A program made the translations under genes and the position numbers. The notes beneath the pieces are model-generated. The model worked only from the letters and a program-made list of their open reading frames with translations. It did not search any database and was not told the DNA's origin. DNA of 31,111 nucleotides, taken from assembly GCA_964539965.1 (NCBI GenBank), contig CAZILI010000003.1, positions 1-31,111 on the forward strand, written 5' to 3'. Of the stretch, positions 4,215-28,187 are shown in pieces. How positions within the stretch are numbered: position 1 is the first letter of the stretch; every line of letters begins with the position of its first letter. Origin of the DNA: an uncultured Burkholderiales bacterium. Its GTDB lineage: Bacteria > Pseudomonadota > Gammaproteobacteria > Burkholderiales > JALYOK01.

Positions 4215-5087
4215 TTAGGGCTTGGCCCGTGTAGTCGCGTTGCCACGCTCGCAGGTAAGCCTGCCGCCGTCGTTACGAACTGGGCTTTGACAAGTTTCCG
4301 GATCGGCCAAGAACGTCGGCTGCCAGCGACCGACCGCGGTCATGCAGGTGGCGGATAGCACGTTGCCGTTCAATTCCAGCCCCCGACAGCCCTCGACCTT
4401 CGTGTCGACCGCCACCACCGACTCACCGGAGCAGCGCAGTTCTCCATTGACATTGGCGATACCGCCCCGACAGAGCCGATAGTTGTCCAGGTGGGTTGGC
4501 TGCCACATTCCGGCCGCATTCTTGCAAGTGCTACGTAGGGTAGTCGAGTTCACAAAACTATCACGGCAAGTTGCCAGATAAGAGCCGCGCGGCGGTGTAG
4601 TGCCTTGGTTGCATTGAAGCTGTCCTTCCACGTTGCTGATTTGCCCCAGGCACTGCGTTACGCCGACGAGTTCGGTCTTCCGCCATGTTCCACCCGCGTC
4701 CAAGCAGGTGCCATGCAAGGTATTTCCGCTTACGTAGCTATCACGGCAGCTTTGCGAGTAGGGGCCGAACGGCGCGGGGGCGCCTCGCTCGCAGACCAAC
4801 GTGCCGTTGGAGTTCGCGATGTCTCCGACGCACGCGCGAAAATCCTCCAGCCGGGTCTCGAGAAACTGGCCGCCGCGCGACTTGCAGTTACTTTCCAGCG
4901 TGCGGCCCACGACCCTGCTGTCCTTGCAGTTGAGCAAATAGCTGCCTTGAGGTGGGGATTCCGCCCAGGCCGGCGCGCCGGCGCTCCCTGTTAGCAAGGC
5001 TACGACGCCGACGACAACCCTTCCTTGCCGAGGGCGCTGCAGCGATTGACCAGGCGCCCGATGGGTGTGCTGATACATGCTCACCAT
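4215..5087 (-). CDS. Secreted cyanovirin-N-like (CVNH) repeat protein, putative lectin
   Basis: Hydrophobic signal (VVVGVVALLTGSAGAPAWA) followed by four ~58-aa repeats of GSY..xC.d..v.g.tL..xC....G.w..t.L.....C.g.i.N.nG.L.C. The start could be 5123, 5087 or 5078. Confidence 0.7.
   Translation of the reverse strand: MVSMYQHTHRAPGQSLQRPRQGRVVVGVVALLTGSAGAPAWAESPPQGSYLLNCKDSRVVGRTLESNCKSRGGQFLETRLEDFRACVGDIANSNGTLVCERGAPAPFGPYSQSCRDSYVSGNTLHGTCLDAGGTWRKTELVGVTQCLGQISNVEGQLQCNQGTTPPRGSYLATCRDSFVNSTTLRSTCKNAAGMWQPTHLDNYRLCRGGIANVNGELRCSGESVVAVDTKVEGCRGLELNGNVLSATCMTAVGRWQPTFLADPETCQSPVRNDGGRLTCERGNATTRAKP
4243..4955 (-). repeat. Four tandem protein-level CVNH-like repeats, each with 4 Cys
   Basis: R1 QGSYLLNC..SNGTLVC; R2 FGPYSQSC..VEGQLQC; R3 RGSYLATC..VNGELRC; R4 KVEGC..DGGRLTC. 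Confidence 0.8.
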
Positions 5088-5202
5088 CGTACTCCGCACC
5101 CCGCCGTCGAACAATTCGGGCACGGGTTCGACGTCGAGGCGGCCAGCGTTGTCAAGTTATGTCGCAGGGTGGTGCCAAGGCTAGAGCGACCGCGAGACTA
5201 TG

Positions 5203-5335: not shown

Positions 5336-7657
5336 ATGACAACCAGCGAGTTCGAAGCGAGCGTTCTTGCCGAGGAGGAAGCAGTCGGCGAGAGGAGTGT
5401 CTTCACGACCCGGGAGGCTCCGTCTGTCGCACCCAAAGGCAATGACCGGCCAAGCGATTGGCCGGAGGGCGGTCCGATCGATCTGCGTGTCCATGACTTG
5501 CCACATCGCTCTTCGACTACCGAGTGGTGGTACCTCAATTGCCATGTCGCGACTCATGGCGGGAGGCAGCTCTCGTTGTTCGCAAGTTTCTTTCGCATTC
5601 TCCTCGATCAAGGCGCAGCGAGCAGCAAACCCGAGTATGCGCACGCGCTGAGTTGGGCGCTGGTCGACCCGAGCGCCGGGAAGTATTACGCCGATTCGCT
5701 GGTTGATCCATGCGCGCCGGCCGTCGCATTGGAAAAGCTCGAACGCGGCGAATGCGGTTTCGATCCGTTGTTGAAGCGCGCCGCCCAGGATATGTTGCGC
5801 GAGGGAAAGGTCCCGCACCCGGACCGCCTGATGGCAGCAGCCGCGCAGATTAGTCACACCAAGCTCGACTTGGACTTCGGCGGCTGCGGTTTACGTAAGC
5901 TAGAGAACGGCGCTTACGCTCTGAGTCTCACGCGCGATACGGCGGACGCTGCCTGCGAACTCGTGTTCCACCCACTGAGCGCGCCGATACGCCACGGCGA
6001 CGACGGCCTGGTGCGCGGAGCAGCGGGTGAGGGCATGTTCTACTACTTTATTCCGAAATGCCGAGTAGAGGGGCAGATCCGCGTTGAGGCCGAAGCACCG
6101 GTGAAGGTGGCCGGCAGCGGTTGGTACGACCACGAATTCGGTCAATCCCGCAAGGATCAAGAGCAAACGCAAGCTTCGTGGAATTGGATTTCGGTTCAGC
6201 TCGACAACGGCTATCAGATCTCCGCGTACGATCTCTTCGACGACGTTCGCGCGACCGGGCTCGGGCGCTGGGCGATCGTGGTAGATCCACAGGGTCGTCG
6301 CCATAAGAGCGTCAATTTTCGTCTCGAGCCGCTGACGCATTGGATCAGCACGCGTACGTTCGCCGAGTACCCGACTAGTTGGGCACTCGAAATCCCCGAA
6401 GTGGAACTGTCGCTCGAGGTCGAAGCGGCTTTCCCCGCGCAGGAGTTCGTGACCATCATTTCCGAGCCCGCCTTTTGGGAAGGTCGTGTCGGTGTGGTGG
6501 GCGAGATGAGGGGGCGGCCAGTGAAAGGCCTAGGCTTCGTCGAGCGCACGGGATTCGGCGCGCCGCGTGCGTTGCCCCAGCTCTTATCCGCAGCAGGCGA
6601 GCAGACTCGCCGCGCAGTCGGTGCGCTCCTGCCCACCAGGCCGACCGAGGCACAAGCGCGCCGTTTGATCGCCAGCGAGGCGCATCGTCATTACGTCGAA
6701 GACTTGGATCTGGACCAACACGCGCGCACCGTCCTCGCGCCGCTGCGAGAGATGATCGATCGCGGGGGAAAGGCGTGGCGCTCCTTCGCGATGCTCGCTT
6801 GCATCGACGCGGTCGGAGGCGACTCGCAACCCTTCGCCGACTGGGCGGCGTTGCCTGAGCTCGTGCATACCGGCTCGCTTATCGTCGACGACATTGAAGA
6901 CGGTTCGACACTGCGCCGCGGCGGCCCCGCATGCCACGTCATGCATGGCGAGGCGATTGCGATCAACGCCGGAAATGCCGCGTACTTTCTGGGCGAGGCG
7001 TTGCTGCGTGAGAGCCGGTTGGACGGCGAGATGAAACTACGCCTGTACGAGCTGTACTTCGAAGCGCTGCGCGCCGCTCACGCCGGTCAAGCCGCCGATA
7101 TCGACGGGCTGCGCGGCGCCATGCCCGCGGTGGTGGAAAGCGGCGCCGGCGACCTCCTCGAACGCCGCGTGTTGTGCGTGCACCGCCTGAAGTCCGCAGT
7201 GCCGGTTCGCTCCCTGGCGATGATGGGCGCGATCATCGGCAGCGGTACGCCCGAACAAGTCAGACGCATGGGTGACTACTTCGAGAAGGTCGGTCTCGCG
7301 TTCCAGATCATGGACGACGTTCTCAACCTGCGAGGCTTTCCTGAAGGGCTGAAGACCCGGGGAGAAGACATCTTCTGCGGAAAAGTGACCATGCCGATCG
7401 CCAAGGCCATGTCCCGGCTCGGACTACGACGTCGCCGCAAACTGTGGAAGGTTCTCTCAGCCAAGCCGCGCGACGCTGTCACCGTTTCCGGAGTCATCGA
7501 TGAACTGGAAGCTTGCGGTGCCATCTCCGCTTGCGTCGAACAAGCGCGGGAACTTCCGGAGCACGCCTGGCGTGCCTTGGATCCGTTGTTGAAGGACTCG
7601 CGGACCAAACTCATGCTGCGAGCATTCGGCTGGTATGTGTTGGAAAGAAACTACTGA
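5336..7657 (+). CDS. Fusion protein: N-terminal CrtC/AttH lipocalin-like domain + C-terminal trans-isoprenyl diphosphate synthase (GGPPS-like)
   Basis: N half: EWWYLN, MFYYFIP, GWYDHEFG, WNWISVQL, YPTSW, FWEG, GLGFVE. C half: GGKAWR, HTGSLIVDDIED (6887-6901), LRRG, GQAADI, FQIMDDVLNL (7313-7327), GEDIFCGK. Confidence 0.85.
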   Translation: MTTSEFEASVLAEEEAVGERSVFTTREAPSVAPKGNDRPSDWPEGGPIDLRVHDLPHRSSTTEWWYLNCHVATHGGRQLSLFASFFRILLDQGAASSKPEYAHALSWALVDPSAGKYYADSLVDPCAPAVALEKLERGECGFDPLLKRAAQDMLREGKVPHPDRLMAAAAQISHTKLDLDFGGCGLRKLENGAYALSLTRDTADAACELVFHPLSAPIRHGDDGLVRGAAGEGMFYYFIPKCRVEGQIRVEAEAPVKVAGSGWYDHEFGQSRKDQEQTQASWNWISVQLDNGYQISAYDLFDDVRATGLGRWAIVVDPQGRRHKSVNFRLEPLTHWISTRTFAEYPTSWALEIPEVELSLEVEAAFPAQEFVTIISEPAFWEGRVGVVGEMRGRPVKGLGFVERTGFGAPRALPQLLSAAGEQTRRAVGALLPTRPTEAQARRLIASEAHRHYVEDLDLDQHARTVLAPLREMIDRGGKAWRSFAMLACIDAVGGDSQPFADWAALPELVHTGSLIVDDIEDGSTLRRGGPACHVMHGEAIAINAGNAAYFLGEALLRESRLDGEMKLRLYELYFEALRAAHAGQAADIDGLRGAMPAVVESGAGDLLERRVLCVHRLKSAVPVRSLAMMGAIIGSGTPEQVRRMGDYFEKVGLAFQIMDDVLNLRGFPEGLKTRGEDIFCGKVTMPIAKAMSRLGLRRRRKLWKVLSAKPRDAVTVSGVIDELEACGAISACVEQARELPEHAWRALDPLLKDSRTKLMLRAFGWYVLERNY

Positions 7658-7667
7658 AGGAGGAGCT

Positions 7668-8195
7668 ATGTTGGACGGGATATGCCTACAAGACGTCATG
7701 CCGCATTCATCGCCAGTCTTTTTGCCCCAGACGAGAAGCAGGAAGCGCTCGGCCTCCGTGTTTCATGAATCGATCTGCCTGCACACGGAGTACGGTCCGC
7801 AATTCATCGACCTGACCGATCGCGTGAACGAGATCGTCGCGCAGTCCGGCATGTCCTACGGAATGGTGAACATACAAACGCGCCACACCACGACCGCGAT
7901 CGTCATCAACGAAAACGAGCCGCTGCTCCTGGAAGACATGAAGCTCATGCTCGATCGCTTGGCGCCGGCTAGCATGGACTACCAGCACAACAATTTTGCC
8001 ATTCGCACCGTCAACATGGTGCCGGGCGAAGTCGCCAACGGTCACGCGCACTGCCAAGCGTTGCACCTACGCGCCTCCGAGACCGTCAATTTGCTCGACG
8101 GTCGACTGCAACTGGGGCGCTGGCAGCGCATCTTTCTGCTCGAGCTTGACCACGCCAGGGAGAGAACCGTGTCCGTGCTGCTGCTTGGCCAATGA
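7668..8195 (+). CDS. yjbQ: YjbQ/UPF0047 family protein (secondary thiamine-phosphate synthase-like)
   Basis: HTTTAIVINENE, NGHAH and LQLGRWQRIFLLELD motifs. Start set at ATG 7668 after the AGGAGGAG RBS. Confidence 0.8.
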   Translation: MLDGICLQDVMPHSSPVFLPQTRSRKRSASVFHESICLHTEYGPQFIDLTDRVNEIVAQSGMSYGMVNIQTRHTTTAIVINENEPLLLEDMKLMLDRLAPASMDYQHNNFAIRTVNMVPGEVANGHAHCQALHLRASETVNLLDGRLQLGRWQRIFLLELDHARERTVSVLLLGQ

Positions 8196-8243
8196 CCGTG
8201 AGTGGCTTCGTCCGCCACGCCGTTCAACCCCGCCCGTAGCAAA

Positions 8244-9536
8244 ATGTACGCGCTATTCACCGCTATTCCTCTGATCGGGCATTTGAACCCGCTCGTGTAC
8301 CAAGCCGTGGAGTTGCAGCGCCGTGGCTGGCGGGTCGCGGTCGCCAGTACCGCCGAGGTCGGCGCATTCCTTGAGCGTGAACATCCGGCCGTCCCGTTCC
8401 TCGCGCTCGGAACGTCAGGCGGCGCGGCCGCCTATCTCAAGCGCGTGCAAGCGCTCGCCTCAAGCGACCGGGATTTTGCGCGCGGCGCGTTGCGCATCGT
8501 GCGAGCGCTGAAAGCGATGTGGCCTTGCATGTTTGACGGCTTGACCGACGCCGTGCGCCAAGACCGCCCCGACGTCATGGTCGTTGACTTGTTCTCTTCA
8601 GCTGGCATGTGCGTGGCCGAAGCAAACGCGATTCCGTTTGTCGTCAACAACGCCAACTTGCTGCCTTGCCTGCCTGTGCAAATGCTGCCTGCGGCGAATC
8701 ATGTTCCCACCTTGTTCTCCGGCCGCTCGATCCGGGCCGTCGGGCGCGCGCGAGCATGCCTGGCGCCGTTGCTTCGCCGACTTGCTGCCGGAGCAGCCGC
8801 ACTGACAGTGGGGCGAGATCTCAACGTCTTGCGGCGCAGTCGAGGTTTGCGCTCGATCGATATCCCCGAATTGCTCAACGGGCGCCCAATTCTGGTCGAC
8901 GGGGCATTCGGGCTCGAATACGAGCGTGCGCTTCCTGCCAACGTACACATGGTGGGCGCCATGCTGCCGGCGGAGCCGGCTCCTCTACCGGGAGATCTAG
9001 CGGCGTGGCTCGATCGGGGGCGGCCGGTGGTCTATGTCAACCTCGGCACCATGACGATCGCCACCCCCAAGCAGCTCGGCACGATGCGTGATGCGTTGAA
9101 GGAGGGACCGTTTCGCGTCCTATGGATAGTGGGAGAGTCTGATGCAGGGGCGCTGGCGCCCGCGGCTTCCGAGCGCTTCAAGATCCTACCTTGGGGCCCG
9201 TCTCCGCTTGCGGTGCTCTCGCATCCCAATGTACGCGCCTTTGTCTCTCACTGCGGCATCAATAGCGTGCATGAGGCGATCCAGGCGGGCACGCCGATCG
9301 TGGGCATCCCGATGTTTGCAGACCAACTCGACATGGGCGTGCGCCTGAGCGACGCGGGCATCGGCATTTGCCTCGACAAGGTCCGATTCACGGCATTCGA
9401 ACTGCGCCAGGCGCTGCAACAAGCAATGAGCGATTCGTCCTTCGCCGTAAATCTCGCGCGGGTGCGCGGATGTTTTCAGCGCGCCGGCGGGCCGGCGCGC
9501 GCGGCCGATCTTATCGTGCAAGCGGCAAGGAGCTGA
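8244..9536 (+). CDS. GT1-family (UGT/MGT-like) glycosyltransferase, paralog A
   Basis: N-terminal IGHLNP, PDVMVVD, and a PSPG-like box WGPSPLAVLSHPNVRAFVSHCGINSVHEAIQAGTPIVGIPMFADQ. Start 8244 was chosen by analogy to paralog B (MYALF); 8202 is possible. Confidence 0.9.
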   Translation: MYALFTAIPLIGHLNPLVYQAVELQRRGWRVAVASTAEVGAFLEREHPAVPFLALGTSGGAAAYLKRVQALASSDRDFARGALRIVRALKAMWPCMFDGLTDAVRQDRPDVMVVDLFSSAGMCVAEANAIPFVVNNANLLPCLPVQMLPAANHVPTLFSGRSIRAVGRARACLAPLLRRLAAGAAALTVGRDLNVLRRSRGLRSIDIPELLNGRPILVDGAFGLEYERALPANVHMVGAMLPAEPAPLPGDLAAWLDRGRPVVYVNLGTMTIATPKQLGTMRDALKEGPFRVLWIVGESDAGALAPAASERFKILPWGPSPLAVLSHPNVRAFVSHCGINSVHEAIQAGTPIVGIPMFADQLDMGVRLSDAGIGICLDKVRFTAFELRQALQQAMSDSSFAVNLARVRGCFQRAGGPARAADLIVQAARS

Positions 9537-9537
9537 C

Positions 9538-10893
9538 ATGTACGCGCTATTCGTTTCCCTTCCCTACGTCGGACATGTCAATCCACTGTTGCGACAAGCC
9601 CAGGCGCTGCAGCGGCGCGGTTGGCGTGTCGGCGTCGCCGGTATGCGGGAAATGGCAAGACACGTAGCGGCCGAAGCGCCGGATATCCCGTTTGTCGATC
9701 TGGGTGCGTTGGGCGACTTAACGCTCGAACTGCGCCGCCTGGAACTGACAGCCTCGATGGATCCCAACTACCTAACCGGCGCGTTGACCATCGCCAAGGG
9801 ACTCGTTTGGGTCGGGCCCCTCATGCTCGAGGGTTTGTGCCGGCACCTGGCGCAAGAGCGTCCCAACGTGGTCGTGACCGACATCTTCACCGCGGCCGGA
9901 GCTTGTGCCGCAGAGCGTTTCGGCATTCCGTTGGTCTTCAACAATCCGTCGTTGCTGACGGGGGTTCCGGTCAGCCTGCTGCCGCCTGCGCCGGACGTTC
10001 CGTTCACCCTCACGGCCCGTTCCATCCACGCAATGCGCTGGTGCGATCGCGCCATCGAGCCGTTGCGCCGAATCCTCAGCGACTGGGCAACCGCGGCCAC
10101 CGTGGGTCGCCATCTCAACGATCTGCGCAAGCGCGCGGGGCTGCCGGCGACGAATCTTACCGACCTCTTGCGCGGCAAGCCCATCCTCGTGAACGGATCG
10201 TTCGGCCTCGAGTACCGCCGAGCGCTGCCCGAAAATATCCATATGGTGGGACCTATGCTGGCGCAAGCCGCACCGGCTCTATCTCCCGAACTCGACCGCT
10301 GGCTGACACAAGGTCCGCCGGTGGTGTACGCCAACCTCGGCACCGTGGTGAAGCCTTCCACTTCACAACTCTCCCATTTGGCGGAGGCGCTCAGATCGAC
10401 CCGCAGGCGCGCACTCTGGGTACTCAAGCCCGACCTTGCCCCGGGACGGTGCATCAGCGAGACGGAAAGCCTGCGAGTGGTGCAATGGGTAACTTCGCCG
10501 CGCGCGATACTTGCCCATCCCAACGTCAAGGCCTTCGTTTCGCACTGCGGCATCAACAGCGTCTACGAGGCGCTCGATGCCGGCACACCGATCGCCGGGA
10601 TTCCGTTCTTCGCCGACCAGCGCGACATGGCAGTGCGCGTGGCGGATGCCGGGGTAGGTCTTTGGCTCGACAAGTCGCGCTTTACCGCAAAGACGCTGGC
10701 CGCACTTCTCGACCGGCTCGTCGACGGAGACGGGTTTGCCCAGCGCATCGCCCCGCTACGGGCGGCCTTCTCCGAGGCGGGCGGCGCTGAGCGAGCAGCC
10801 GACATCATCGAGCGATCAGCGAGCGAACAGCCCGCAGCCGGCTTGGCCGCCGGGCGCAGGGCACTACGCTCGGAGGCCGGCCAATGCGTGTAG
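9538..10893 (+). CDS. GT1-family (UGT/MGT-like) glycosyltransferase, paralog B
   Basis: VGHVNP, PNVVVTD and WVTSPRAILAHPNVKAFVSHCGINSVYEALDAGTPIAGIPFFADQ. It starts 1 nt after the paralog A stop. Confidence 0.9.
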   Translation: MYALFVSLPYVGHVNPLLRQAQALQRRGWRVGVAGMREMARHVAAEAPDIPFVDLGALGDLTLELRRLELTASMDPNYLTGALTIAKGLVWVGPLMLEGLCRHLAQERPNVVVTDIFTAAGACAAERFGIPLVFNNPSLLTGVPVSLLPPAPDVPFTLTARSIHAMRWCDRAIEPLRRILSDWATAATVGRHLNDLRKRAGLPATNLTDLLRGKPILVNGSFGLEYRRALPENIHMVGPMLAQAAPALSPELDRWLTQGPPVVYANLGTVVKPSTSQLSHLAEALRSTRRRALWVLKPDLAPGRCISETESLRVVQWVTSPRAILAHPNVKAFVSHCGINSVYEALDAGTPIAGIPFFADQRDMAVRVADAGVGLWLDKSRFTAKTLAALLDRLVDGDGFAQRIAPLRAAFSEAGGAERAADIIERSASEQPAAGLAAGRRALRSEAGQCV

Positions 10894-10969
10894 GCGCGCT
10901 TGCGTGCATTGCCGGCGATAGGAAACTGTGGCATGCTGTTATGCTTCGTGGCTGATTGGAGGAGTCGCC

Positions 10970-11596
10970 ATGTCTTCTGGTTCTAAGTCATCTCCTAACG
11001 TGGAGGCGCTCAACGCGAAGGCCGGCCAAGCTGCGCTGGCGGCCGGCGGGCTGCCCTCTGCTGAAGGTGTCAGCGTGGATAAGATCCGCGACCTGCTGTT
11101 CGGTAGCCAAATGCAAGATTACGACCGCCGATTCGGTGGGCTCGAGGAACGTTTCCAGCAGCGCATCAAGGAAGTCGAAAACGAGGCCACTCGGACGTAC
11201 ACCGGCCTGGAAGCGGCGACCAAGAAGCAGCTCGAATCGTTGGCGAGTCAGTTGCGCGAGGAAAAAGAGGTCCGATCCGACGCCGAGAAACAAATCGAGC
11301 GTGGGTTGCGTGAACAGGTGCAGGGGTTGGAGAAGCGGGTCGGGCAGCTGTCCGAGCATCTGGCGCAGGTGGAGCGTGACTTCGCCGACCGCCTTGCACA
11401 GGAGTCGCAGACCTTGCGCGATGAGATTCGGCGCCGGAACGACGAACTGCGCAACACAATCGAGCGCATGTTCGGTGAGTTGAGCAACGTCAAGACCGAC
11501 CGGAATTTGCTTGCGGGCCTGTTCGTCGAGATCGCCAAGTGCCTCAATCAAGACCTGAGTCCCAAGAGCGTCGGCAGAACTGAATTGGCCGCGTGA
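10970..11596 (+). CDS. Coiled-coil hypothetical protein associated with the OmpA/Rab module
   Basis: GGAGGAG RBS before ATG 10970; VDKIRDLLFG.QM.DY..RF followed by about 140 aa of heptad-like, charged helical sequence. Confidence 0.75.
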   Translation: MSSGSKSSPNVEALNAKAGQAALAAGGLPSAEGVSVDKIRDLLFGSQMQDYDRRFGGLEERFQQRIKEVENEATRTYTGLEAATKKQLESLASQLREEKEVRSDAEKQIERGLREQVQGLEKRVGQLSEHLAQVERDFADRLAQESQTLRDEIRRRNDELRNTIERMFGELSNVKTDRNLLAGLFVEIAKCLNQDLSPKSVGRTELAA

Positions 11597-11641
11597 ATAG
11601 GGAAACTCTGAAAGGGGGGCCTCGGCCGCGCCGTTCTCGAC

Positions 11642-13477
11642 ATGGTCTCCAGCGTTGCTTGGCCTGATTCCGAGTCCGAGCGCAAGAAAGGCGAGCAGCG
11701 ACTTGCCGCGCTGCTGATCGACCTCGCCCGAAATCTCAATCGTGATGTTGCCGCCGGCGTACCGAGTCAGGTAGTCGATCCGCGCCTAGAAGAACTGCGC
11801 CACATCGTCGTCGGGCCGGAGCGCTCCGGTCTCGAGCGGCTGCAACAGCGGCTCGACGATCCCGAACAACTCACCGCAACCGTCAGTCAGGTGCTTGCTC
11901 CGGCGATCGTGCAAGCGGCTGCGCGCGACGAACGCCTTGGCGAAGCGCTGTCCCCCATGGTCGAGACTGCTACTCAGCTCTCGATCAAGAAAGATCCGCG
12001 CACTCTCGTCAACATCTTGTATCCGCTGATCGGGCCCGCGATCCGCAAGTCGCTCAGCGAGACCCTCGAGCAGTCGATGAAATCGCTCAACGAAATGCTG
12101 CGCCAGAGCTTTTCGTGGCGCGGACTGCGTTGGCGGCTGGAGGCATATCGAACCGGGACGACGTTCGCTCAAGTGGTGCTGCGGCACACACTGGTCTACC
12201 GCGTGGATCACGTGTTTCTCATTCACCGCCATACCGGACTGCTGATCGAGCACGTTACCGCCGATCCCCTAACCGAGAAAGATCCGCAGCTCGTCTCCGG
12301 TATGCTGACCGCCATTCAGGATTTCGTGCGTGATTCGTTCTCTGCGCCTAGCGATGCCGGGCTGGACACCTTGCGATTCAGCGAATGGCTATTGTGGTGC
12401 GTGGAAAGCCCGCACGCGTTCCTGGTCGCGGTGATACGCGGCAATCCGCCGCAGGAGTTGCGCGAGTGGTTGCGCGACACATTGATTCAGATCCATGCCC
12501 ACAAACATCAAGCGTTGGAGCGGTACGAGGGAGATCGCAACGGCTTTCTCGACATACACGACCTACTCGAGCGTTGCCTGCGCGTGCAAGAGCGGCCCGA
12601 GCCGGCCAAGACTTCAACGGTTTTCTGGTTGTTGGTCTTGGTCTTACCGCTGGCGCTGCTGGTGGCGGGGGGGTATGCGCTGTACGAGCGCAGCCAAGAC
12701 CAGCGGCGCTTTGCCGGCTACGTGAATAGACTACGCGCTGAACCAGGAATAGTCGTGACTGCAACGGAAATGCGCGACAACCGTTGGCACGTGAGCGGTC
12801 TGCGCGATCCGCTCGCGGTCGATCCCAAGGACCTGATAGTCGACAGTGGGCTAACGGCCGAGCGGGTGATCGGCCATTGGGCGCCATACCAGGGACTCGA
12901 CCCGGAATTGGTGTTGAAGCGCCTGAAAGCGAGCCTCGAAGTCCTGCCGTCGGTCACCCTGTCGATAGAGAAAGGGGCGATACGCGCTCGTGGACTCGCC
13001 CCGCACTACTGGTTGGAGAAGGCGCGCGCGGTGGCGAGCGTTCTTCCGCCAGGATCGCCACAACTCGACCTTACGTCGGTTAAGGATGTCGACAAGACGG
13101 CGCTGGAGGGCGTACGCGAGTCGATCGAATCCTATGTGATTTTCTTCGACAAGGATGCTGCGACACCGACAGCTGGACAGGAGGCGCAAATCAACGCGTT
13201 GGCCGCGCAGTTGCGCGAATTGGCGAGCGTCTCGCGCAAGTTGCGACTAGGTGCTCGTGTGACCGTGATCGGTCATGCCGACGCTACCGGAAAAGAGACT
13301 ACCAATCTTGCCCTGAGCATCGCGCGCGCCGAGGTGGTGCGCTCACTGCTCAAGCGTGACGGGGTCGACCCCGACTTGTTGGCGGCGCGCGGAGCGGGTC
13401 GTCTGGAGCCGGTGGTATCCCCTGGTGAAGCCGATCGCAACCGGCGGGTGTCGTTGACCGTGACCTTCTCCGAGTAA
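11642..13477 (+). CDS. Single-pass membrane protein: helical + longin-like cytoplasmic region, TM helix, periplasmic domain, C-terminal OmpA-C peptidoglycan-binding domain
   Basis: TM segment VFWLLVLVLPLALLVAGGYALY (12620-12685). The C-terminus VIGHADATG..TNLALSIARAEVV...NRRV is an OmpA-C signature. The N-terminal part has VFLIHRHTGLLI...LVSGMLTAIQDF. Confidence 0.8.
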   Translation: MVSSVAWPDSESERKKGEQRLAALLIDLARNLNRDVAAGVPSQVVDPRLEELRHIVVGPERSGLERLQQRLDDPEQLTATVSQVLAPAIVQAAARDERLGEALSPMVETATQLSIKKDPRTLVNILYPLIGPAIRKSLSETLEQSMKSLNEMLRQSFSWRGLRWRLEAYRTGTTFAQVVLRHTLVYRVDHVFLIHRHTGLLIEHVTADPLTEKDPQLVSGMLTAIQDFVRDSFSAPSDAGLDTLRFSEWLLWCVESPHAFLVAVIRGNPPQELREWLRDTLIQIHAHKHQALERYEGDRNGFLDIHDLLERCLRVQERPEPAKTSTVFWLLVLVLPLALLVAGGYALYERSQDQRRFAGYVNRLRAEPGIVVTATEMRDNRWHVSGLRDPLAVDPKDLIVDSGLTAERVIGHWAPYQGLDPELVLKRLKASLEVLPSVTLSIEKGAIRARGLAPHYWLEKARAVASVLPPGSPQLDLTSVKDVDKTALEGVRESIESYVIFFDKDAATPTAGQEAQINALAAQLRELASVSRKLRLGARVTVIGHADATGKETTNLALSIARAEVVRSLLKRDGVDPDLLAARGAGRLEPVVSPGEADRNRRVSLTVTFSE

Positions 13478-13489
13478 GGCGCCCGGGAC

Positions 13490-13984
13490 ATGCTGCAGAA
13501 GAAGATCTGCATGCTGGGCGCGTTTGCGGTCGGCAAGACGAGCCTGGTTCGGCGCTACGTCGACAGCATCTTCTCCGATGCCTACCTTACCACCGTGGGA
13601 GTCAAGATCGACAAGAAATCCCTCAACGTTCAGGGTCGCAGCGTGGACTTGATCGTGTGGGACATCGCCGGGGAGGACGACATCTCGGCGGTGCGTATGA
13701 GCTATGTGCGCGGCGCCTCCGGCTACCTGCTGGTGGTGGACGGCACCCGGCCGGAGACGTTGGACGTGGCGGATTCGTTGCGCAAACGCGTTGCTTCCGA
13801 AATCGGCAGCGTTCCGTTCGTGGCGTTGCTCAACAAGCAGGATCTGCGTGAGCGCTGGGCGATTTCTCAACGTGCTGTGCAGGAGCGCGAACAAGACGGC
13901 TGGCTGATCCAGTTCACCAGCGCGAAGACCGGCGCGGGAGTGGAGTCGGCGTTCCAAGCGCTCGCAGATCGCGTCGCCGGGTAG
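13490..13984 (+). CDS. Ras/Rab-like small GTPase (stand-alone, 164 aa)
   Basis: G1 GAFAVGKTS, G2 YLTTVG, G3 WDIAGE, G4 NKQD, G5 TSAKTG. There is no C-terminal lipidation tail. Confidence 0.92.
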   Translation: MLQKKICMLGAFAVGKTSLVRRYVDSIFSDAYLTTVGVKIDKKSLNVQGRSVDLIVWDIAGEDDISAVRMSYVRGASGYLLVVDGTRPETLDVADSLRKRVASEIGSVPFVALLNKQDLRERWAISQRAVQEREQDGWLIQFTSAKTGAGVESAFQALADRVAG

Positions 13985-14027
13985 CCGCTGAGTCGCGCTT
14001 TCGTTTCCGTGCCGAGCACTCAAACAC

Positions 14028-15293
14028 ATGTCCCGCCTAACCGCAGTTGACAGCCTTTCGGCGCGCACGGTGACGGAGCCGGAATGGCCGGCTTCCGTCA
14101 CACAATTTCTCCTATCGAACCTGCGTGCGCGACGCGCGGTCGCTTTTCTCCGAGTCGATGCTTCGCTGCTTGTGGCCGATGCGGGTGGTGAACTGGCGAA
14201 CTATGGGTTGCAGGGGGTGCGCATCGGCGTATCGGCGTGCGAACAGGCGGTGTTCTTGGCCGGTTTGCTGCCCGCGCCCGAGTTGCCTTTCTGCCTCGAA
14301 TCGGTGCAGATGCCTTCGGGGCGTTCCGCCGATCTGCACTTGGTCGCCGACTCCGCCGACACTTGGGTGTTGTTGTTGGATGTGAGCGTCGAGCGGGACG
14401 AGGCGTGGCGCTTCCAGCAGCGGGCATACGAGATGACCTTGCTGAGTGAGCGCGAAGGACAGCTGATTCAGCGCCTCGAAAGCGCAAACCGCTCGTTGCA
14501 GCGTACGCAACTCGCTCTGGAGCAGTCGCGCGAGGCGTTGTTACGCGCCAACCGCCGCCTGGAGCAGGAACTAACCGATGCGGCTAACTACGTGCGCTCC
14601 ATCTTGCCGCCGCCGCTGTCGACGCCGTTCGAAGTGGATTGGCGGTTCGTGCCGTCCACCGAGCTAGGTGGCGACTCGTTTGGCTATCACTGGATCGACG
14701 AACATCACTTCGCGTTGTATATCCTGGATGTTTGCGGGCACGGCGTCGGCTCGGCGCTGCTGTCGGTGGCCGCCAGCAACGCGCTGCGCTCCCAAGCCTT
14801 GCCGAGCGCGGATTTCCGTGAGCCGGACGAAGTCCTCACGGCGTTGAACCAGGCGTTTCTGATGGAGAAGAACAACGATCTGTACTTGACCATTTGGTAC
14901 GGGGTCTACCATCGCGGCTCCAGGCAACTCGAGTATGCCTGTGCCGGCCATCCGCCGGCGTTGCTGCTGCGCGGCCCTGCGCACGAAGCGGCCCGAGTGG
15001 ACGAGTTGCGCGCCAGGGGCACGGTGCTCGGCATTACCTCAGGCGTGAGATACCGCAGCCAAACCACCACGGTGCCGCCTGACACCCGCCTGTTTTTGCT
15101 TACGGACGGCGCCTTCGAAGTGCGTAGACCCGACGGCACAGTATTGCCCTATGCCGAATTCCTCGACCATCTGGTGCAGCCGATCGCCGATGGTACTTCG
15201 GAGCTGGACCGGCTGTTGACCTTCATGGGCGAGACTCACGGACCGGGGCCGCTCGAGGACGACTTTTCCGCGGTCAAGTTCCGCTTCCCTTAG
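14028..15293 (+). CDS. SpoIIE/RsbU-like PP2C Ser/Thr phosphatase with N-terminal PAS-like domain and coiled-coil linker
   Basis: ELGGDSF, ILDVCGHG, CAGHPP, LTDGAFE and EDDFS motifs are intact. The N-terminal ~120-aa domain ends in WVLLLDVS and is followed by a heptad helix. Confidence 0.88.
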   Translation: MSRLTAVDSLSARTVTEPEWPASVTQFLLSNLRARRAVAFLRVDASLLVADAGGELANYGLQGVRIGVSACEQAVFLAGLLPAPELPFCLESVQMPSGRSADLHLVADSADTWVLLLDVSVERDEAWRFQQRAYEMTLLSEREGQLIQRLESANRSLQRTQLALEQSREALLRANRRLEQELTDAANYVRSILPPPLSTPFEVDWRFVPSTELGGDSFGYHWIDEHHFALYILDVCGHGVGSALLSVAASNALRSQALPSADFREPDEVLTALNQAFLMEKNNDLYLTIWYGVYHRGSRQLEYACAGHPPALLLRGPAHEAARVDELRARGTVLGITSGVRYRSQTTTVPPDTRLFLLTDGAFEVRRPDGTVLPYAEFLDHLVQPIADGTSELDRLLTFMGETHGPGPLEDDFSAVKFRFP

Positions 15294-15321: not shown

Positions 15322-16758
15322 CTACTCTTCGTCGTCGGTTCGATCGACCTCGCGCTGCCGAACCAGTCGCTTATTGAGTGCGTGGCGCGAGATACCCAAT
15401 AGGCTGGCCGCCACGCCTTGGTTGCCGTCGGCGCGCCGCAGCGCCTCTTGAATTAGCGCCTGCTCGGTCTGCTTCAAGGTAGGAAGCTGCTCCGGGAACG
15501 ACATTACCGCCGGATCCGACTCGTCCTCTTCCGTCACTTCGTCTTCGGCCTGCTGGCCGAGAATCGCTTCTTTGAAGCTCTGCAGCGAGAGGATGGTGCC
15601 GCGATGCCGCGCAACGGCATCGAATACCAACGCCTCCAGCTCTCTGATGTTGCCCGGGAAACCATATGTCTTGAGCAGCTGAAACAATGCCGGCGGAACA
15701 CTCGGCTCCGGCTTCGCCAGCGCCCGCGCCGCCTTTTCGACAAAATGATCTACTAGCAGCGGCAGATCTCCCGGTCGCGCCCGCAGCGGCGGCAAGTGGA
15801 AGTGATGCGTGCGCAGACGGTAATACAGGTCTTTGCGGAATTTTCCCTCGCTTACCGCGCGAAGGACGTCGCTATTGGTGGCGACGATGACCCTCGCGCG
15901 TGACTGGCGCGGCTTGTCTGCCCCCAGCGGATAGTAGGTGCCGTCCTGCAGCAGACGCAGGAGCTTGACCTGGGAGGCGATCGATAGGTCGCCGATCTCG
16001 TCCAGGAACAGCGTTCCTTCGGCGGCGCTGGTGACCAGTCCCTCTCTCGGTCGATCGGCGCCGGTGTAAGAACCTTTGGTATGGCCGAACAGTGTGTCCG
16101 AGAACATCGTATCGTCCAGCCCCGCCACGTTGACCGCGACCAGTTCGCCGCGCCGGCCGGACAGTCGATGTATCGCCTTCGCGATGAGTTCCTTGCCGGT
16201 GCCGCTCTCGCCGGTGATAAGTGCAGGCTGCGGCGAGGGCGCGATCGCCTCCAGATAGCGAAAGATCGCCAGCATCGTTTTGCTCTGCGTGACGATCTCG
16301 GATATCAGTCTGCTTTCGCGCGGGCTATCGGTGAGCAGGCTGTCTTTCAGAGAGAGGACCTCGGCGCGCAGGGCGAGGATCTCCAGGGCGCGGTTCACCG
16401 AGGAAATCAGTCGCTCCGCGTCCAGCGGCTGCATGAGGCGGTCGATCGCGCCGGTCCGCGAGGTCAGCGGTCCGCCGCCCGGACCATCTTCACCGCCGAC
16501 CAGGATGATCGCCACCTCGGGATAATGTAGATGGATGCGCTCGAGCAGCTCGACACCTTCCGAGTCCGCGCCGCGCGTTGCGAAGACGAGCACGGCACCG
16601 TCGTGCTTGGCAAGCGTTGCCAGCACCTCGTCGCGCTCGTCCAGTTGTAAGAGATTGGTGACGCCCGCGCTGCGCAGCACCTCGGCCGCGTCGTCCAGCA
16701 AGATCCCTTCGCCTGCCACCAGCAGGATCGGCAGTGTGCTGATCTCGTTGAGTTTCAT
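15322..16758 (-). CDS. sigma54-dependent activator (bEBP): degenerate receiver + AAA+ + Fis-type HTH
   Basis: Walker A GESGTGKE, LFGHTKGSYTGA, Walker B LFLDEI, FRKDLYYRL, FPGNIREL and a C-terminal HTH GNQGVAASLLGISR. Start set at MKLNE (16758) rather than the ORF-track 16959. Confidence 0.9.
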   Translation of the reverse strand: MKLNEISTLPILLVAGEGILLDDAAEVLRSAGVTNLLQLDERDEVLATLAKHDGAVLVFATRGADSEGVELLERIHLHYPEVAIILVGGEDGPGGGPLTSRTGAIDRLMQPLDAERLISSVNRALEILALRAEVLSLKDSLLTDSPRESRLISEIVTQSKTMLAIFRYLEAIAPSPQPALITGESGTGKELIAKAIHRLSGRRGELVAVNVAGLDDTMFSDTLFGHTKGSYTGADRPREGLVTSAAEGTLFLDEIGDLSIASQVKLLRLLQDGTYYPLGADKPRQSRARVIVATNSDVLRAVSEGKFRKDLYYRLRTHHFHLPPLRARPGDLPLLVDHFVEKAARALAKPEPSVPPALFQLLKTYGFPGNIRELEALVFDAVARHRGTILSLQSFKEAILGQQAEDEVTEEDESDPAVMSFPEQLPTLKQTEQALIQEALRRADGNQGVAASLLGISRHALNKRLVRQREVDRTDDEE

Positions 16759-17019
16759 GGCACGACGACGCCTGCGCCGGGCATTTGGCGCTCCGCCGCG
16801 GAGCCGCTGTCGCGTTGCCAATACTGGGACAACACTACGATTGACCTCCTCCAGGCGAATCGACAGTGTCAAAAAGGCGCTCGGGCCAGACGACCTAGGT
16901 GTCCTGAGACGGCGCGCCGAGCCGCATTGTAGCCTTTCTGTCCTCGTATTGCCCGCCATTGGAGCGGCGTTGTGAATGCCCGGCGGTTTGGCTAGACTGT
17001 CGCCTCATCAGGAATCCTT

Positions 17020-17469
17020 GTGATCGAAGACCGGTCGCCTCGGAGTCAGCGAATCAGCACGCGCGCGGTTGTCGCCAATCTGCCGTCGCTGCTGGACTTC
17101 GTTCATCAGGCGTGCGAAGGGGTCGGTGTGGCGGCTTCAGTCACCTCATCACTCAAGCTTGCCGTGGAGGAGGTATGCATGAACATCATCACGCATGGCT
17201 ACGCCGGCAGCGAACCGGGACCGATCGAGTTGTCGTTTCGCGCGCAACGCGATTCGATTACCGTTGTCGTTGCCGATCGCGCCAAGCCGTTCACTCCCGA
17301 GGCCGTTCCTAGCCCCGATTTGGGCACCACTTGGCGCAGCCGCCGCAGCGGCGGCTTGGGCTGGCATCTGGTCAAGCAGATGGTCGATCATGTCCGCCAC
17401 GAGCGAATTGTCAGTGGAGGTAATAGCCTGACTCTAGTGAAGTACATAAAGCCGTTGGATTCGGCATAG
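17020..17469 (+). CDS. RsbW/SpoIIAB-like anti-sigma factor / serine kinase (HATPase_c_2)
   Basis: LAVEEVCMNIITHGY (N box), ADRAKPF and GGLGWHLVKQMVD (G2 box). Confidence 0.88.
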   Translation: MIEDRSPRSQRISTRAVVANLPSLLDFVHQACEGVGVAASVTSSLKLAVEEVCMNIITHGYAGSEPGPIELSFRAQRDSITVVVADRAKPFTPEAVPSPDLGTTWRSRRSGGLGWHLVKQMVDHVRHERIVSGGNSLTLVKYIKPLDSA

Positions 17470-17474
17470 ATACC

Positions 17475-17828
17475 ATGGAAGTCACTTCACGCAACGTGGG
17501 AGGTGTCATCGTCTTGTCGGTGAGCGGTGCTATCGACGGCTTGGCCGCCGACGCACTGTTCGGGGCGCTCGGCGGCCAGATACGCGACGGCCATACTCGC
17601 TTGGTCGCCGATCTGAGCGGCGTCAACTACACGGGCAGTGCCGGTCTGCGCGCGCTGTTGGTGACGCTCAAAGACGCGCGGCGGGGCGGCGGAGATCTCT
17701 ATCTGAGCGCGGTTCAACCAGAAGTCTTAAGGGTGCTCGAACTCAGCGACCTGACGAGTATCTTGAAGCTGTATCCGGACGTCGAGACGGCGGTGGCGAG
17801 CTTCCGCTCGTCGGCGCCCGCGCGGTAG
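17475..17828 (+). CDS. STAS-domain anti-anti-sigma factor (RsbV/SpoIIAA-like)
   Basis: LSVSGAID, DLSGVNYTGSAGLRAL with the phosphoacceptor Ser retained, and VLELSDL; 5 nt after the RsbW-like gene. Confidence 0.88.
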   Translation: MEVTSRNVGGVIVLSVSGAIDGLAADALFGALGGQIRDGHTRLVADLSGVNYTGSAGLRALLVTLKDARRGGGDLYLSAVQPEVLRVLELSDLTSILKLYPDVETAVASFRSSAPAR

Positions 17829-27352: not shown

Positions 27353-27576
27353 AACCCAATCCCCCGAATCGCAAAGCACCCACCGCAGCCGACTTGCGGT
27401 CCCGATGCCGCATTGTCATGGCGCGGGCCTCGGATGGCAAGCCTCGCCTTCCTTCGATCACAAACGCCCGCACCGCGCATGCGCGACGGGCCAAAGAACC
27501 TTTTCCCGACTTGCAGCAACTAAGGGATCGGCACCGGTTCCGGCGCCCATATCGCCAAATTTGGGAGCTTCAAGCT

Positions 27577-28176: not shown

Positions 28177-28187
28177 CTGTGCGACAC

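Follow-up and report, generated by a model that had tools for sequence, protein, structure and literature searches.

The closest described system is the Group 1 Rup neighbourhood, recognised by comparative genomics in 2014 (Wuichet & Søgaard-Andersen, Genome Biol Evol 2014/2015, PMC4316618); its genes follow the order DUFY > DUFX:OmpA > Rup > output protein. According to this work, Group 1 Rup GTPases are devoid of the G3 Gln, and the N-terminal domain of the output protein carries an invariant Gln that was proposed to be supplied in trans to the GTPase. For PPM phosphatases, binding of a partner protein to the N-terminal domain and linker was reported to order a coiled coil and to activate the dimers; the activating module is exchangeable with GGDEF and kinase outputs (PMC12143880).

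The window under study, a stretch of 31,111 nt from an uncultured Burkholderiales bacterium (contig CAZILI010000003.1), carries a four-gene cassette (Table 1). Judged by its sequence, the cassette is the Group 1 Rup neighbourhood, the missing G3 Gln and the invariant output Gln included. It had been singled out in an earlier note on this DNA as an unstudied system: undescribed it is not (PMC4316618), and no experimental study of the Group 1 Rup cassette was found in the literature searched. New relative to 2014 are the phosphatase output, a partner-switching link and hints at which parts regulate the GTPase. The cassette is rather probably a Group 1 Rup small-GTPase signalling module, the PP2C output of which feeds a partner-switching pair.

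Table 1. Features of the cassette and of the neighbouring gene pair in the window.
Feature	Size or residues	Positions	Strand	Basis
Cytoplasmic coiled-coil protein (DUFY of Wuichet 2014)	208 aa	10970-11596	+	ORF
Single-pass inner-membrane protein (DUFX:OmpA)	611 aa	11642-13477	+	ORF, Pfam, AlphaFold2
Candidate longin/roadblock-like alpha/beta domain	187-293	12200-12520	+	AlphaFold2, pLDDT ~90
Transmembrane helix, VFWLLVLVLPLALLVAGGYALY	~327-348	12620-12685	+	read from sequence
Periplasmic alpha/beta spacer module	370-496	12749-13129	+	AlphaFold2 model
OmpA-like peptidoglycan-binding domain	499-610	13136-13471	+	Pfam OmpA, Foldseek
Group 1 Rup (Rab-like) small GTPase	164 aa	13490-13984	+	ORF, Pfam, structure-sequence matches
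GTPase G1, GAFAVGKT	10-17	13517-13540	+	read from sequence
GTPase switch I, T35	35	13592-13594	+	read from sequence
GTPase G3, WDIAGE (positions of DIAGE)	57-62	13661-13675	+	read from sequence
GTPase G4, NKQD	115-118	13832-13843	+	read from sequence
GTPase G5, SAK	144-146	13919-13927	+	read from sequence
Output protein	421 aa	14028-15293	+	ORF, Pfam SpoIIE, AlphaFold2
Rup-associated N-terminal alpha/beta domain of output	~17-119	14076-14384	+	AlphaFold2
Linker helix of output, 72 residues	120-191	14385-14600	+	AlphaFold2
Q130-Q131, motif QQ[KR]AY, at N-terminal domain/linker helix junction	130-131	14415-14420	+	alignment
PP2C/SpoIIE domain of output	202-420	14631-15287	+	Pfam, AlphaFold2
RsbW/SpoIIAB-like serine kinase or anti-sigma-type protein (HATPase_c_2)	149 aa	17020-17469	+	Pfam 1.1e-26
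STAS anti-sigma-antagonist-like protein	117 aa	17475-17828	+	Pfam STAS 3.7e-20

ORF reading returned all four genes on the + strand with the coordinates and the intergenic gaps (45, 12 and 43 nt) given in the earlier note; for the coiled-coil protein an alternative GTG start is possible upstream, at 10928. Loci were fetched using the GTPase alone (n = 80), and 69 of them had flanking DNA enough for synteny scoring. The coiled-coil gene was upstream and the membrane protein gene present in 69/69, and the order coiled coil > membrane/OmpA protein > GTPase was identical, strand included, in the same 69/69; the relatives span at least four phyla (Proteobacteria, Acidobacteriota, Cyanobacteria, Victivallales). 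The genes are thus linked in an arrangement far beyond chance, and the gene-neighbourhood survey that the earlier note had proposed bears out its view of one conserved functional unit. Near-invariant motifs of the coiled-coil protein (76 orthologues) were VDKIRDLLFGxQMQDYDRRF at the head and LSNVKTDRNLLAGLFVEIAKCLNQD at the tail; no Pfam or NCBIfam family was matched over cut-off, and Pfam gave sub-threshold coiled-coil-type matches only.

The GTPase was matched by Pfam Ras (2.9e-29), Roc (1.3e-21) and Arf (1.8e-13). Its best matches among solved structures were all Rabs (Rab23, 1e-22; then Rab21, Rab7, Rab2 and Rab1), in keeping with the Rab-like character assigned to it earlier, and the five G boxes, SAK included, are directly readable in the sequence. 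A C-terminal Cys is absent. In the alignment with Rab structures Glu62 stands under the catalytic Gln; Phe occupies the Ras Gly12 position and Glu the Gln61 position. G3 read D[LIVM]AGE in 78 of 83 GTPases and G1 read G.F..GKT throughout, so the replacement of the catalytic Gln by Glu, noticed earlier in the single sequence, is a family trait. With Glu at the Ras Gln61 position a GTPase can retain intrinsic hydrolysis, and the dependence of the GTPase on a GAP is therefore not certain. Canonical Ras hydrolysis is impaired by substitution at the Gly12 and at the Gln61 positions, and essentially every member retains F12 and E62; this would suit a GTPase that does not cycle but serves a membrane complex as a structural subunit, always GTP-bound (or sensing nucleotide), with the invariant Gln of the output as a structural or regulatory linker residue instead of a catalytic finger. 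Retention of all five G motifs, T35 and the guanine-specificity boxes included, at 58-75% identity across phyla argues for a working switch instead.

The membrane protein was modelled with pLDDT 78.7 (AlphaFold2): residues 1-326 are cytoplasmic, the transmembrane segment falls inside a continuous helix (326-366), and the remainder is periplasmic. The cytoplasmic domain family comprises 4279 representatives among 50%-identity clusters (E<=1e-3). Residues 187-293 form two strands, helix, three strands, helix in the model and contain the near-invariant motifs DPQLxSxMLxAIQDFVxDSF and AxLxxVIxGxPP. Foldseek against BFVD gave five giant-virus longin-SNARE matches to the cytoplasmic domain (E 0.02-0.24), and Pfam on 43 family members gave Fuz_longin_1 (E 0.022) and Robl_LC7 (E 0.15) in two members each, no more than chance would yield over 43 queries; profile searching of PDB sequences returned nothing, and Foldseek of the membrane protein against the PDB returned OmpA matches only. 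A longin/roadblock-like fold is tentatively suggested for this domain by the model. GEFs and GAPs of small GTPases are usually built on longin and roadblock domains (MglB, Mon1-Ccz1, Ragulator).

In the periplasmic part the spacer module, present in one copy in the window and in one to five in orthologues, was matched repeatedly by phmmer in Mesorhizobium proteins of 885-1049 aa; it belongs to no Pfam family, with a single weak BON hint. The OmpA-like domain (Pfam OmpA, E 7.8e-12, residues 514-602) was matched by Foldseek to Pal, OprF, YfiB and OmpA C-terminal domains (E ~5e-8). Domains of this kind serve as anchors in MotB and Pal, both matched by Foldseek, the repeat resembles a spacer more than a ligand-binding domain, and MglA, the sole well-studied prokaryotic Ras-like GTPase, regulates polarity (PMC4316618). 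The membrane protein might accordingly hold the module at one envelope site, such as a pole, septum or peptidoglycan feature, and pass no periplasmic signal, with the GTPase as an MglA-like localisation or polarity switch that recruits or releases the output enzyme. This spatial role is unlikely: the large, strongly conserved cytoplasmic part exceeds the needs of an anchor, and the outputs are classical signal-transduction enzymes on a coiled-coil linker of fixed length, which suits allosteric activation more than recruitment by itself.

The output protein (AlphaFold2, pLDDT 86.5) consists of an N-terminal domain joined by a single helix to a PP2C domain (Pfam SpoIIE/PP2C, E 2.7e-39, residues 224-420). 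The N-terminal domain had no Pfam and no PDB sequence match; the PP2C domain was closest by Foldseek to the partner-switch phosphatases P. aeruginosa RssB, SiaA, Rv1364c, RsbX and SpoIIE. The phosphatase is the output, as named in the earlier note. All output proteins carry the conserved N-terminal domain with the invariant Gln at its end; it is joined to PP2C in 37 loci, to a class III cyclase in 36, to a histidine kinase in 4 and to a sigma-54 activator in 1, and PP2C is one among several interchangeable outputs of the cassette. On the GTPase tree PP2C-type and cyclase-type loci intermingle, which means that outputs have been swapped on a constant core.

Q131 was invariant in 79 aligned outputs and present in every complete output, the divergent histidine-kinase outputs included, which keep it as AQKAR or IQKAR; it corresponds to the invariant glutamine described for Group 1 Rup outputs (PMC4316618). 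From Q131 to the GGD motif, 30 of 34 PP2C outputs had a spacing of 83 residues and another had 76, a heptad less. A simple heptad count puts Q130 and Q131 at b/c positions, outside the a/d core, a placement that fits an exposed contact site and proves nothing. TBC RabGAPs supply a Gln in trans, and such a mechanism suits a Rab-like protein. Gln131 might just as well have a structural or regulatory part in the linker, as does Q94 of RsbU, a linker Gln that governs coiled-coil stability, not catalysis (PMC12143880). The latter agrees with the non-cycling GTPase considered above, which is nevertheless quite unlikely in view of the G motifs, the TBC precedent and the position of Q131 outside the a/d core.

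Downstream of the cassette lie the genes of an RsbW-like kinase and a STAS protein, overlooked in the earlier note. NCBIfam RsbW matched the former at 1.2e-12, under the family cut-off, and ant_ant_sig matched the latter at 2.3e-19, over cut-off; the Ser in DLSGVNYTGSAGL is presumably, judged by eye against the SpoIIAA motif, at the phospho-serine position of SpoIIAA. The first is probably the partner-switch kinase, the second probably the PP2C substrate, and the two together probably the substrate pair of the phosphatase. STAS and RsbW genes were present at a distance of <=10 kb in 22 of 31 PP2C loci vs 0 of 38 other loci (Fisher p 3e-11, the loci not being phylogenetically independent), in five different arrangements; the pair was not found within 10 kb in 9 of the 31. 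Among the long ORFs of the window scanned with Pfam (a subset of ORFs) there was no sigma factor or other obvious RsbW target.

PADLOC gave weak matches of the coiled-coil protein to the ZorA tail (best 2.1e-6, 24.8 bits) and of the OmpA domain to ZorB (4.5e-4), as if the coiled-coil protein and the peptidoglycan-binding membrane protein formed an envelope-anchored anti-phage defence of the Zorya kind. This is very improbable: the matches are confined to the coiled-coil and OmpA-like segments, the MotA/ExbB-like membrane domain of ZorA is missing, the GTPase, PP2C, STAS and RsbW proteins fit no PADLOC defence model, and every output type is a regulatory enzyme. Moreover, same-genus loci mostly cluster on the neighbour-joining GTPase tree, which fits the vertical inheritance argued in PMC4316618.

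For the preferred signalling module, the direction of signalling and the GEF and GAP roles are inferred from the architecture, and the flow from envelope sensor to GTPase to phosphatase, as proposed in the earlier note, is plausible. The OmpA-like domain and the variable-length spacer would tether the membrane protein to peptidoglycan, and envelope state would be relayed to its ~326-residue cytoplasmic part, where the candidate longin/roadblock-like domain would work on the GTPase, its likeliest role being that of an exchange factor or a docking platform; participation of the coiled-coil protein is probable. GTP-bound GTPase would then bind the junction of N-terminal domain and linker in a dimeric output protein and order the 72-residue linker into a coiled coil, rendering the PP2C domains active, as RsbT does with RsbU. 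Gln131 may complete in trans the active site of the GTPase, with its Glu and Phe at the Gln61 and Gly12 positions; if so, the effector would double as GAP and time its own signal. Active PP2C would dephosphorylate the STAS protein, which would bind the RsbW-like kinase and free the target of the latter.

Compared with Group 1 Rup as described, the window has the same order of DUFY (coiled coil), DUFX-TM-OmpA, Rup and output, the same missing G3 Gln, an invariant Gln in the output N-terminal domain and no coupled MglB; a published Mesorhizobium member falls in the same family. The typical outputs in PMC4316618 are diguanylate cyclase/phosphodiesterase fusions and histidine kinases, whereas the window has PP2C with a STAS/RsbW pair; no mention of PP2C, SpoIIE or phosphatase was found in its text or supplement, nor of Guanylate_cyc in its supplement, and the DUFX cytoplasmic domain was given no fold assignment there. 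With RsbT-RsbU-RsbV-RsbW of B. subtilis and P. aeruginosa RssB, HsbR/HsbA and SiaABC the window shares a SpoIIE/RsbU-type PP2C behind a long helical linker, a STAS substrate candidate and an RsbW-like kinase nearby; in the published model a partner protein activates by binding to the N-terminal domain and linker (PMC12143880). It differs in the proposed activator, a Ras-superfamily GTPase in place of the RsbT kinase or a phosphorylated receiver, in the unrelated, uncurated alpha/beta N-terminal domain of the output, and in that the Pfam scan of long ORFs in the window showed no sigma factor.

MglA/MglB of Myxococcus xanthus is likewise a prokaryotic Ras-superfamily GTPase system, possibly comparable in control by a roadblock-like domain; the window GTPase is a Rup and not of the MglA family, MglB has no gene of its own here, the roadblock/longin-like domain, if it is one, sits within the membrane protein, and the outputs are enzymes, not motility machinery. 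The actinobacterial conservon (CvnA-D, Mfp), an analogy already drawn by Wuichet & Søgaard-Andersen (PMC4316618), is also a four-gene operon of membrane protein, accessory proteins and small GTPase; its GTPase, however, is MglA Group 2, a histidine kinase serves as its membrane component, roadblock (CvnB) and DUF742 proteins are encoded separately, and an OmpA domain is lacking. Of the eukaryotic system of Rab, TBC GAP and longin-domain GEF, the Rabs are the best sequence matches of the window GTPase; the proposed trans Gln resembles the TBC dual-finger mechanism, and a longin-like domain is possible, on a weak assignment, in the upstream partner. Unlike the eukaryotic system, that of the window is without prenylation motif, cis Gln, TBC or DENN domains, and its setting is signal transduction, not vesicle traffic.

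The four co-directional plus-strand ORFs claimed in the earlier note were all found, with identical coordinates (cassette 10970-15293; intergenic gaps of 45, 12 and 43 nt); they are listed below together with their neighbours. An NCBIfam scan of the cassette proteins added nothing specific, and promoter and terminator scans gave background level only. Long antisense ORFs at 10988-11551, 11786-12253, 13343-14101 and 14112-14510 (all minus strand) overlap the cassette genes and also match other loci; they are shadow ORFs of high-GC coding sequence and no genes. Residues 1-16 of the PP2C ORF (14028-14075) are not conserved, most orthologues beginning at the equivalent of residue 17; translation may nevertheless begin at ATG 14028, because the closest relative (locus L003) also has an N-terminal extension.

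Cassette genes and neighbouring features of the window (Pfam E-values where available)
Feature	Position	Strand	Size, matches
Coiled-coil protein (DUFY)	10970-11596	+	208 aa; sub-threshold coiled-coil-type Pfam matches only
Membrane protein with OmpA-like domain	11642-13477	+	611 aa; OmpA 7.8e-12, residues 514-602
Small GTPase	13490-13984	+	164 aa; Ras 2.9e-29, also Roc, Arf
PP2C/SpoIIE phosphatase	14028-15293	+	421 aa; SpoIIE 2.7e-39, residues 224-420
Sigma-54 activator (AAA+ and HTH_8, degenerate receiver)	15322-16959	-	Response_reg E 9.5e-4, below cut-off
RsbW/SpoIIAB-like HATPase_c_2 protein	17020-17469	+	HATPase_c_2 1.1e-26
STAS anti-sigma-antagonist-like protein	17475-17828	+	STAS 3.7e-20
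302-aa protein with two CVNH (cyanovirin-N homology) lectin stretches	4215-5123	-	
CrtC-type lipocalin/polyprenyl synthase fusion	5336-7657	+	
UPF0047 protein	7635-8195	+	
Two tandem UDP-glycosyltransferases	8202-9536, 9538-10893	+	
Hanks-type Ser/Thr kinase domain	~28390-29153, in ORF 27165-29153	+	Pkinase 4.6e-35, residues 409-616

Species-representative genomes were scanned with the GTPase alone, and 80 loci were obtained (GTPase identity to the window 58-75%). The loci belong to Variovorax, Limnobacter, Mesorhizobium, Xanthobacteraceae, Rhodospirillales, several Gammaproteobacteria, Acidobacteriota, Chloracidobacterium, Fischerella, Calothrix, a Myxococcaceae MAG and Victivallales. ORFs were called in the fetched loci and then searched with the domains of the window. 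The order coiled-coil protein, membrane/OmpA protein, GTPase on one strand was observed in all 69 loci with enough flank, which strongly supports the functional linkage that the earlier note had proposed; gene linkage and domain architecture are regarded as established. The gene after the GTPase begins with the N-terminal domain of the window's phosphatase in 64 of the 69; in the other five it encodes a histidine-kinase-type protein with a divergent N-terminal domain (one of them split) that, where complete, ends in a Q-K-A motif too. Median identity to the window: GTPase, 63%; coiled-coil protein, 54%; cytoplasmic part of the membrane protein, 48%; N-terminal region of the output protein, 45%. 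Across the fetched loci no other gene of the window was conserved with the cassette, the sigma-54 activator included. The family of the membrane-protein cytoplasmic domain is large: searched against 1.84 billion cluster representatives, this part gave 4279 matches at E ≤ 1e-3 (counted among 50%-identity clusters) and 1579 at E ≤ 1e-30.

The Rup family was defined by Wuichet and Søgaard-Andersen (2014, PMC4316618). According to these authors, no prokaryotic GTPases resemble eukaryotic Rab, Ras, Rho and Ran more than the Group 1 Rup proteins do, and none of the latter had been studied experimentally; three conserved genes stand beside rup; DUFY is a cytoplasmic coiled-coil protein, and DUFX:OmpA an unknown domain followed by a membrane helix and OmpA; the output is "typically" a diguanylate cyclase/phosphodiesterase or a histidine kinase, with an invariant Gln in its N-terminal region; the GTPase is without the G3 Gln, and a Gln supplied in trans was speculated (PMC4316618). 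The order DUFY, DUFX:OmpA, Rup is listed in their Table S2 for 27 genomes, including Mesorhizobium loti. The cassette of the window is a member of this Group 1 Rup system, since every defining feature was found: a GTPase below 240 aa (164 aa) with G1-G5 like those of eukaryotic Ras/Rab, and with a G3 in which the catalytic Gln is missing; a coiled-coil ORF (208 aa) upstream, with an orthologue in 69 of 69 loci; a DUFX:OmpA-type protein directly upstream of the GTPase, with the helix in the model and again in 69 of 69 loci; a fourth gene for a signalling output with the invariant N-terminal Gln; and no coupled MglB/Roadblock gene among the scanned window genes or in the Variovorax locus L001. 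Specifically, Robl_LC7 was detected neither in the cassette proteins, downstream neighbours and upstream genes of the window nor in the called genes of L001. Many Mesorhizobium loci carry GTPases of 62-65% identity in the same synteny (M. loti mlr3243 is a listed Group 1 Rup member; its strain MAFF303099 was not among the loci).

The description of the cassette as an unstudied system was thus right in one part: no experimental work on Group 1 Rup was found in the literature searched, which turned up the 2014 paper alone, and comparative genomics had already described the cassette there (PMC4316618). A 2020 conflict-systems paper with shared keywords was unrelated. The terms PP2C, SpoIIE and phosphatase are absent from the 2014 paper and its supplement, and Guanylate_cyc from the supplement; that paper makes no mention of the variant with PP2C as output and a partner-switch pair accompanying it (PMC4316618).

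GTPase: the motifs read from the sequence were G1 GAFAVGKT, T35, G3 WDIAGE, G4 NKQD and G5 SAK. The 60 best solved-structure matches were almost all Rabs, Rab23 first (1e-22), and the Rab-like character recognised earlier holds in this sense of overall similarity. When the protein is aligned with Rab23, Glu62 falls beneath the catalytic Gln, and Phe12 occupies the position of Ras Gly12. The Glu noted previously in the DIAGE of the window is a family trait, D[LIVM]AGE being present in 78 of 83 members. Two marks of eukaryotic Rabs are absent: the protein ends in ...QALADRVAG with no C-terminal Cys prenylation motif, and WDIAGED replaces WDTAGQE with its Gln. The replacements of Gly12 by Phe and of Gln61 by Glu speak against canonical hydrolysis in cis. 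Ras Q61E stays hydrolytically competent, so the GAP dependence proposed in the earlier note is not certain; the GTPase may also be non-cycling. Preference is given here to a cycling GTPase, which the output protein may assist in trans.

Output proteins of 82 fetched loci and of the window were compared (n = 83): PP2C, 37; class III adenylate/guanylate cyclase, 36; histidine kinase, 4; sigma-54 AAA+ activator, 1 (Victivallales locus L069); truncated or split, 5. PP2C and cyclase types are interleaved in the alphaproteobacterial part of the GTPase tree; therefore outputs have been swapped on a constant core. The heterocystous cyanobacteria (L079 10499-12052; L060 10729-11853; L066; L076) show a different output arrangement: in Calothrix a stand-alone 133-aa N-terminal domain is followed by a separate 376-aa protein, and in Fischerella and Pelatocladus a divergent N-terminal domain ending in IQKAR is found on a HATPase_c protein or split from it. 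In Variovorax rhizosphaerae (L010, 19543-20012) a second output N-terminal domain/PP2C-like fragment, 9 kb downstream of the cassette, may be a partial duplicate.

Gln131, at the junction of the N-terminal domain and the linker helix (motif QQ[KR]AY), is invariant in 79 outputs and in all complete outputs of every class. The AlphaFold2 model of the output protein, built from a shallow alignment of 29 sequences, was still confident (pLDDT 86.5) and showed one helix of 72 residues, with Gln131 at its start, bridging the N-terminal alpha/beta domain and the PP2C domain. Of 34 PP2C outputs, 30 have a distance of 83 residues from Gln131 to the GGD motif, and one has 76, a heptad fewer; the Mesorhizobium cyclase linker matches the C-terminal coiled-coil part of HNOBA. 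TBC RabGAPs supply a Gln in trans, and Gln131 may in a similar manner complete the active site of the GTPase, whereby the effector would time itself. Alternatively, Gln131 would be a residue of linker stability (cf. RsbU Q94).

The phosphatase domain is of the SpoIIE/RsbU type of the PPM/PP2C family, having the SpoIIE match and conserved metal-binding Asp motifs (GGD216 and D234-x-x-G237-H, invariant in alignment A2). Its nearest structures (Foldseek, PDB) were the partner-switch phosphatases P. aeruginosa RssB, SiaA, Rv1364c, RsbX and SpoIIE, with E down to 6.6e-15 for RssB, SiaA and RsbX; the full-length model gave PP2C matches only. For the N-terminal domain, a profile search of PDB sequences yielded nothing meaningful and a lenient Pfam scan chance-level matches only; a homology search with this fragment returned only 30 proteins, mostly truncated.

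Membrane protein: the AlphaFold2 model (pLDDT 78.7) comprised a helical region of medium confidence (residues 11-183), a confident alpha/beta domain (187-293; strand-strand-helix-strand-strand-strand-helix, the longin/roadblock topology), one long helix holding the membrane span (residues ~327-348), two periplasmic alpha/beta units and the OmpA-like domain. Against the PDB, Foldseek with the full-length model gave OmpA-type matches only; against a viral library, the best non-OmpA matches included five giant-virus longin-SNAREs (E 0.02-0.24). A lenient Pfam scan of the alpha/beta domain gave Fuz_longin_1 and Robl_LC7 at chance level (2 of 43 members for either family); a profile search of PDB sequences gave nothing meaningful, and hhalign found no similarity between this domain and the alpha/beta domain at the N-terminus of the output. 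The longin/roadblock reading of residues 187-293 is thus a lead, not a result. A periplasmic module (window 12749-13129), without Pfam family, occurs once here and in up to five copies in Mesorhizobium proteins of about 1000 aa (L033, L038, L077, others); orthologues with one to five copies span 611 to 1049 aa, and the module looks like a spacer of variable length from the inner membrane to peptidoglycan. The membrane protein may be looked upon in two ways: it may be an anchor and no sensor, or, as is preferred here, its cytoplasmic domain, perhaps with the coiled-coil protein, would set the nucleotide state or the availability of the GTPase according to an envelope condition.

The coiled-coil protein has near-invariant head and tail motifs. 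By profile comparison, the tail motif (residues 173-202) has a modest match in membrane-protein residues 13-42 (E 3.6e-5 for a single comparison, probability 71%) and the head motif a weak one in residues 43-72 (E 0.045), both within window 11642-11860; with BLASTP, similarity between the coiled-coil protein and the N-terminus of the membrane protein was not significant. The coiled-coil and membrane proteins may have a helical module in common, or they may dock end to end. A Zorya-like defence system was considered and rejected: PADLOC matched ZorA/ZorB weakly, in coiled-coil and OmpA segments only, with no MotA/ExbB-like domain, and the coiled-coil protein is without a membrane domain.

The PP2C output postulated in the earlier note is present; the RsbW/STAS set nearby had been overlooked. 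Here a predicted STAS antagonist and an RsbW/SpoIIAB-type kinase lie near the PP2C gene, and the three would make up a full partner-switching set, as judged by domain content; the Ser of TGSAGL, placed by eye, is presumably the phosphorylatable STAS Ser. STAS and RsbW-like genes were found within 10 kb in 22 of 31 PP2C loci versus 0 of 38 others (Fisher p 3e-11, the loci not being phylogenetically independent). Five arrangements of the pair were seen; in the most frequent (19 loci), STAS, RsbW, coiled-coil protein, membrane protein, GTPase and PP2C follow one another in a single run. The Xanthobacteraceae locus L014 has the order of the window, RsbW before STAS on the cassette strand and downstream of it; in L014 the pair follows PP2C directly. 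No sigma-factor domain, which might mark a target of the RsbW-like protein, was found among the long window ORFs scanned with Pfam.

In the window, the sigma-54 activator separates the PP2C gene from the RsbW/STAS pair; it is not kept beside the cassette in other loci, and the usual acidic residues of its receiver look replaced. The run 5336-10893 (+) resembles a carotenoid or terpenoid glycoside cluster. The start of ORF 27165-29153 is probably overcalled, because the ORF runs into a gene for a luciferase-like monooxygenase on the opposite strand. The remaining genes of the window are metabolic and not conserved with the cassette.

For the remainder of the mechanism we infer the following sequence: the GTP-bound Rup GTPase would be the partner that binds the N-terminal domain/linker of the output, and the active PP2C would dephosphorylate the STAS protein, flipping the RsbW-like switch. 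The full bacterial circuit, with the longin/roadblock-like domain of the peptidoglycan-tethered membrane protein as GEF, the output N-terminal domain as both effector and trans-Gln GAP, and the GTPase acting through a coiled-coil-activated PP2C on partner switching, appears to us rather unlikely as a whole. If true, it would be the first functional link of a Ras-superfamily switch to partner switching, and longin domains would have been paired with Rab-type GTPases before eukaryotes arose; should the roles of the longin-like domain and of the trans-Gln hold, they would bear on the origin of eukaryotic small-GTPase regulation. The family is also of interest for three conserved domains (DUFY, the DUFX cytoplasmic part and the output N-terminal domain) that are still without Pfam or NCBIfam family. 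The GEF/GAP/effector logic is directly testable, because the PP2C variant gives a handy readout, STAS phosphorylation, and is present in genera with isolate genomes, e.g. Variovorax; the cyclase variant is present in Mesorhizobium.

In the mechanism published for RsbT and RsbU, the partner binds the N-terminal domain and linker, the linker becomes an ordered coiled coil and the active dimeric enzyme is formed; GGDEF and kinase outputs are driven by the same input module (PMC12143880). The helical linker of fixed length and the interchangeable outputs (PP2C, cyclase, kinase, AAA+) of the Group 1 Rup cassettes fit this mechanism.
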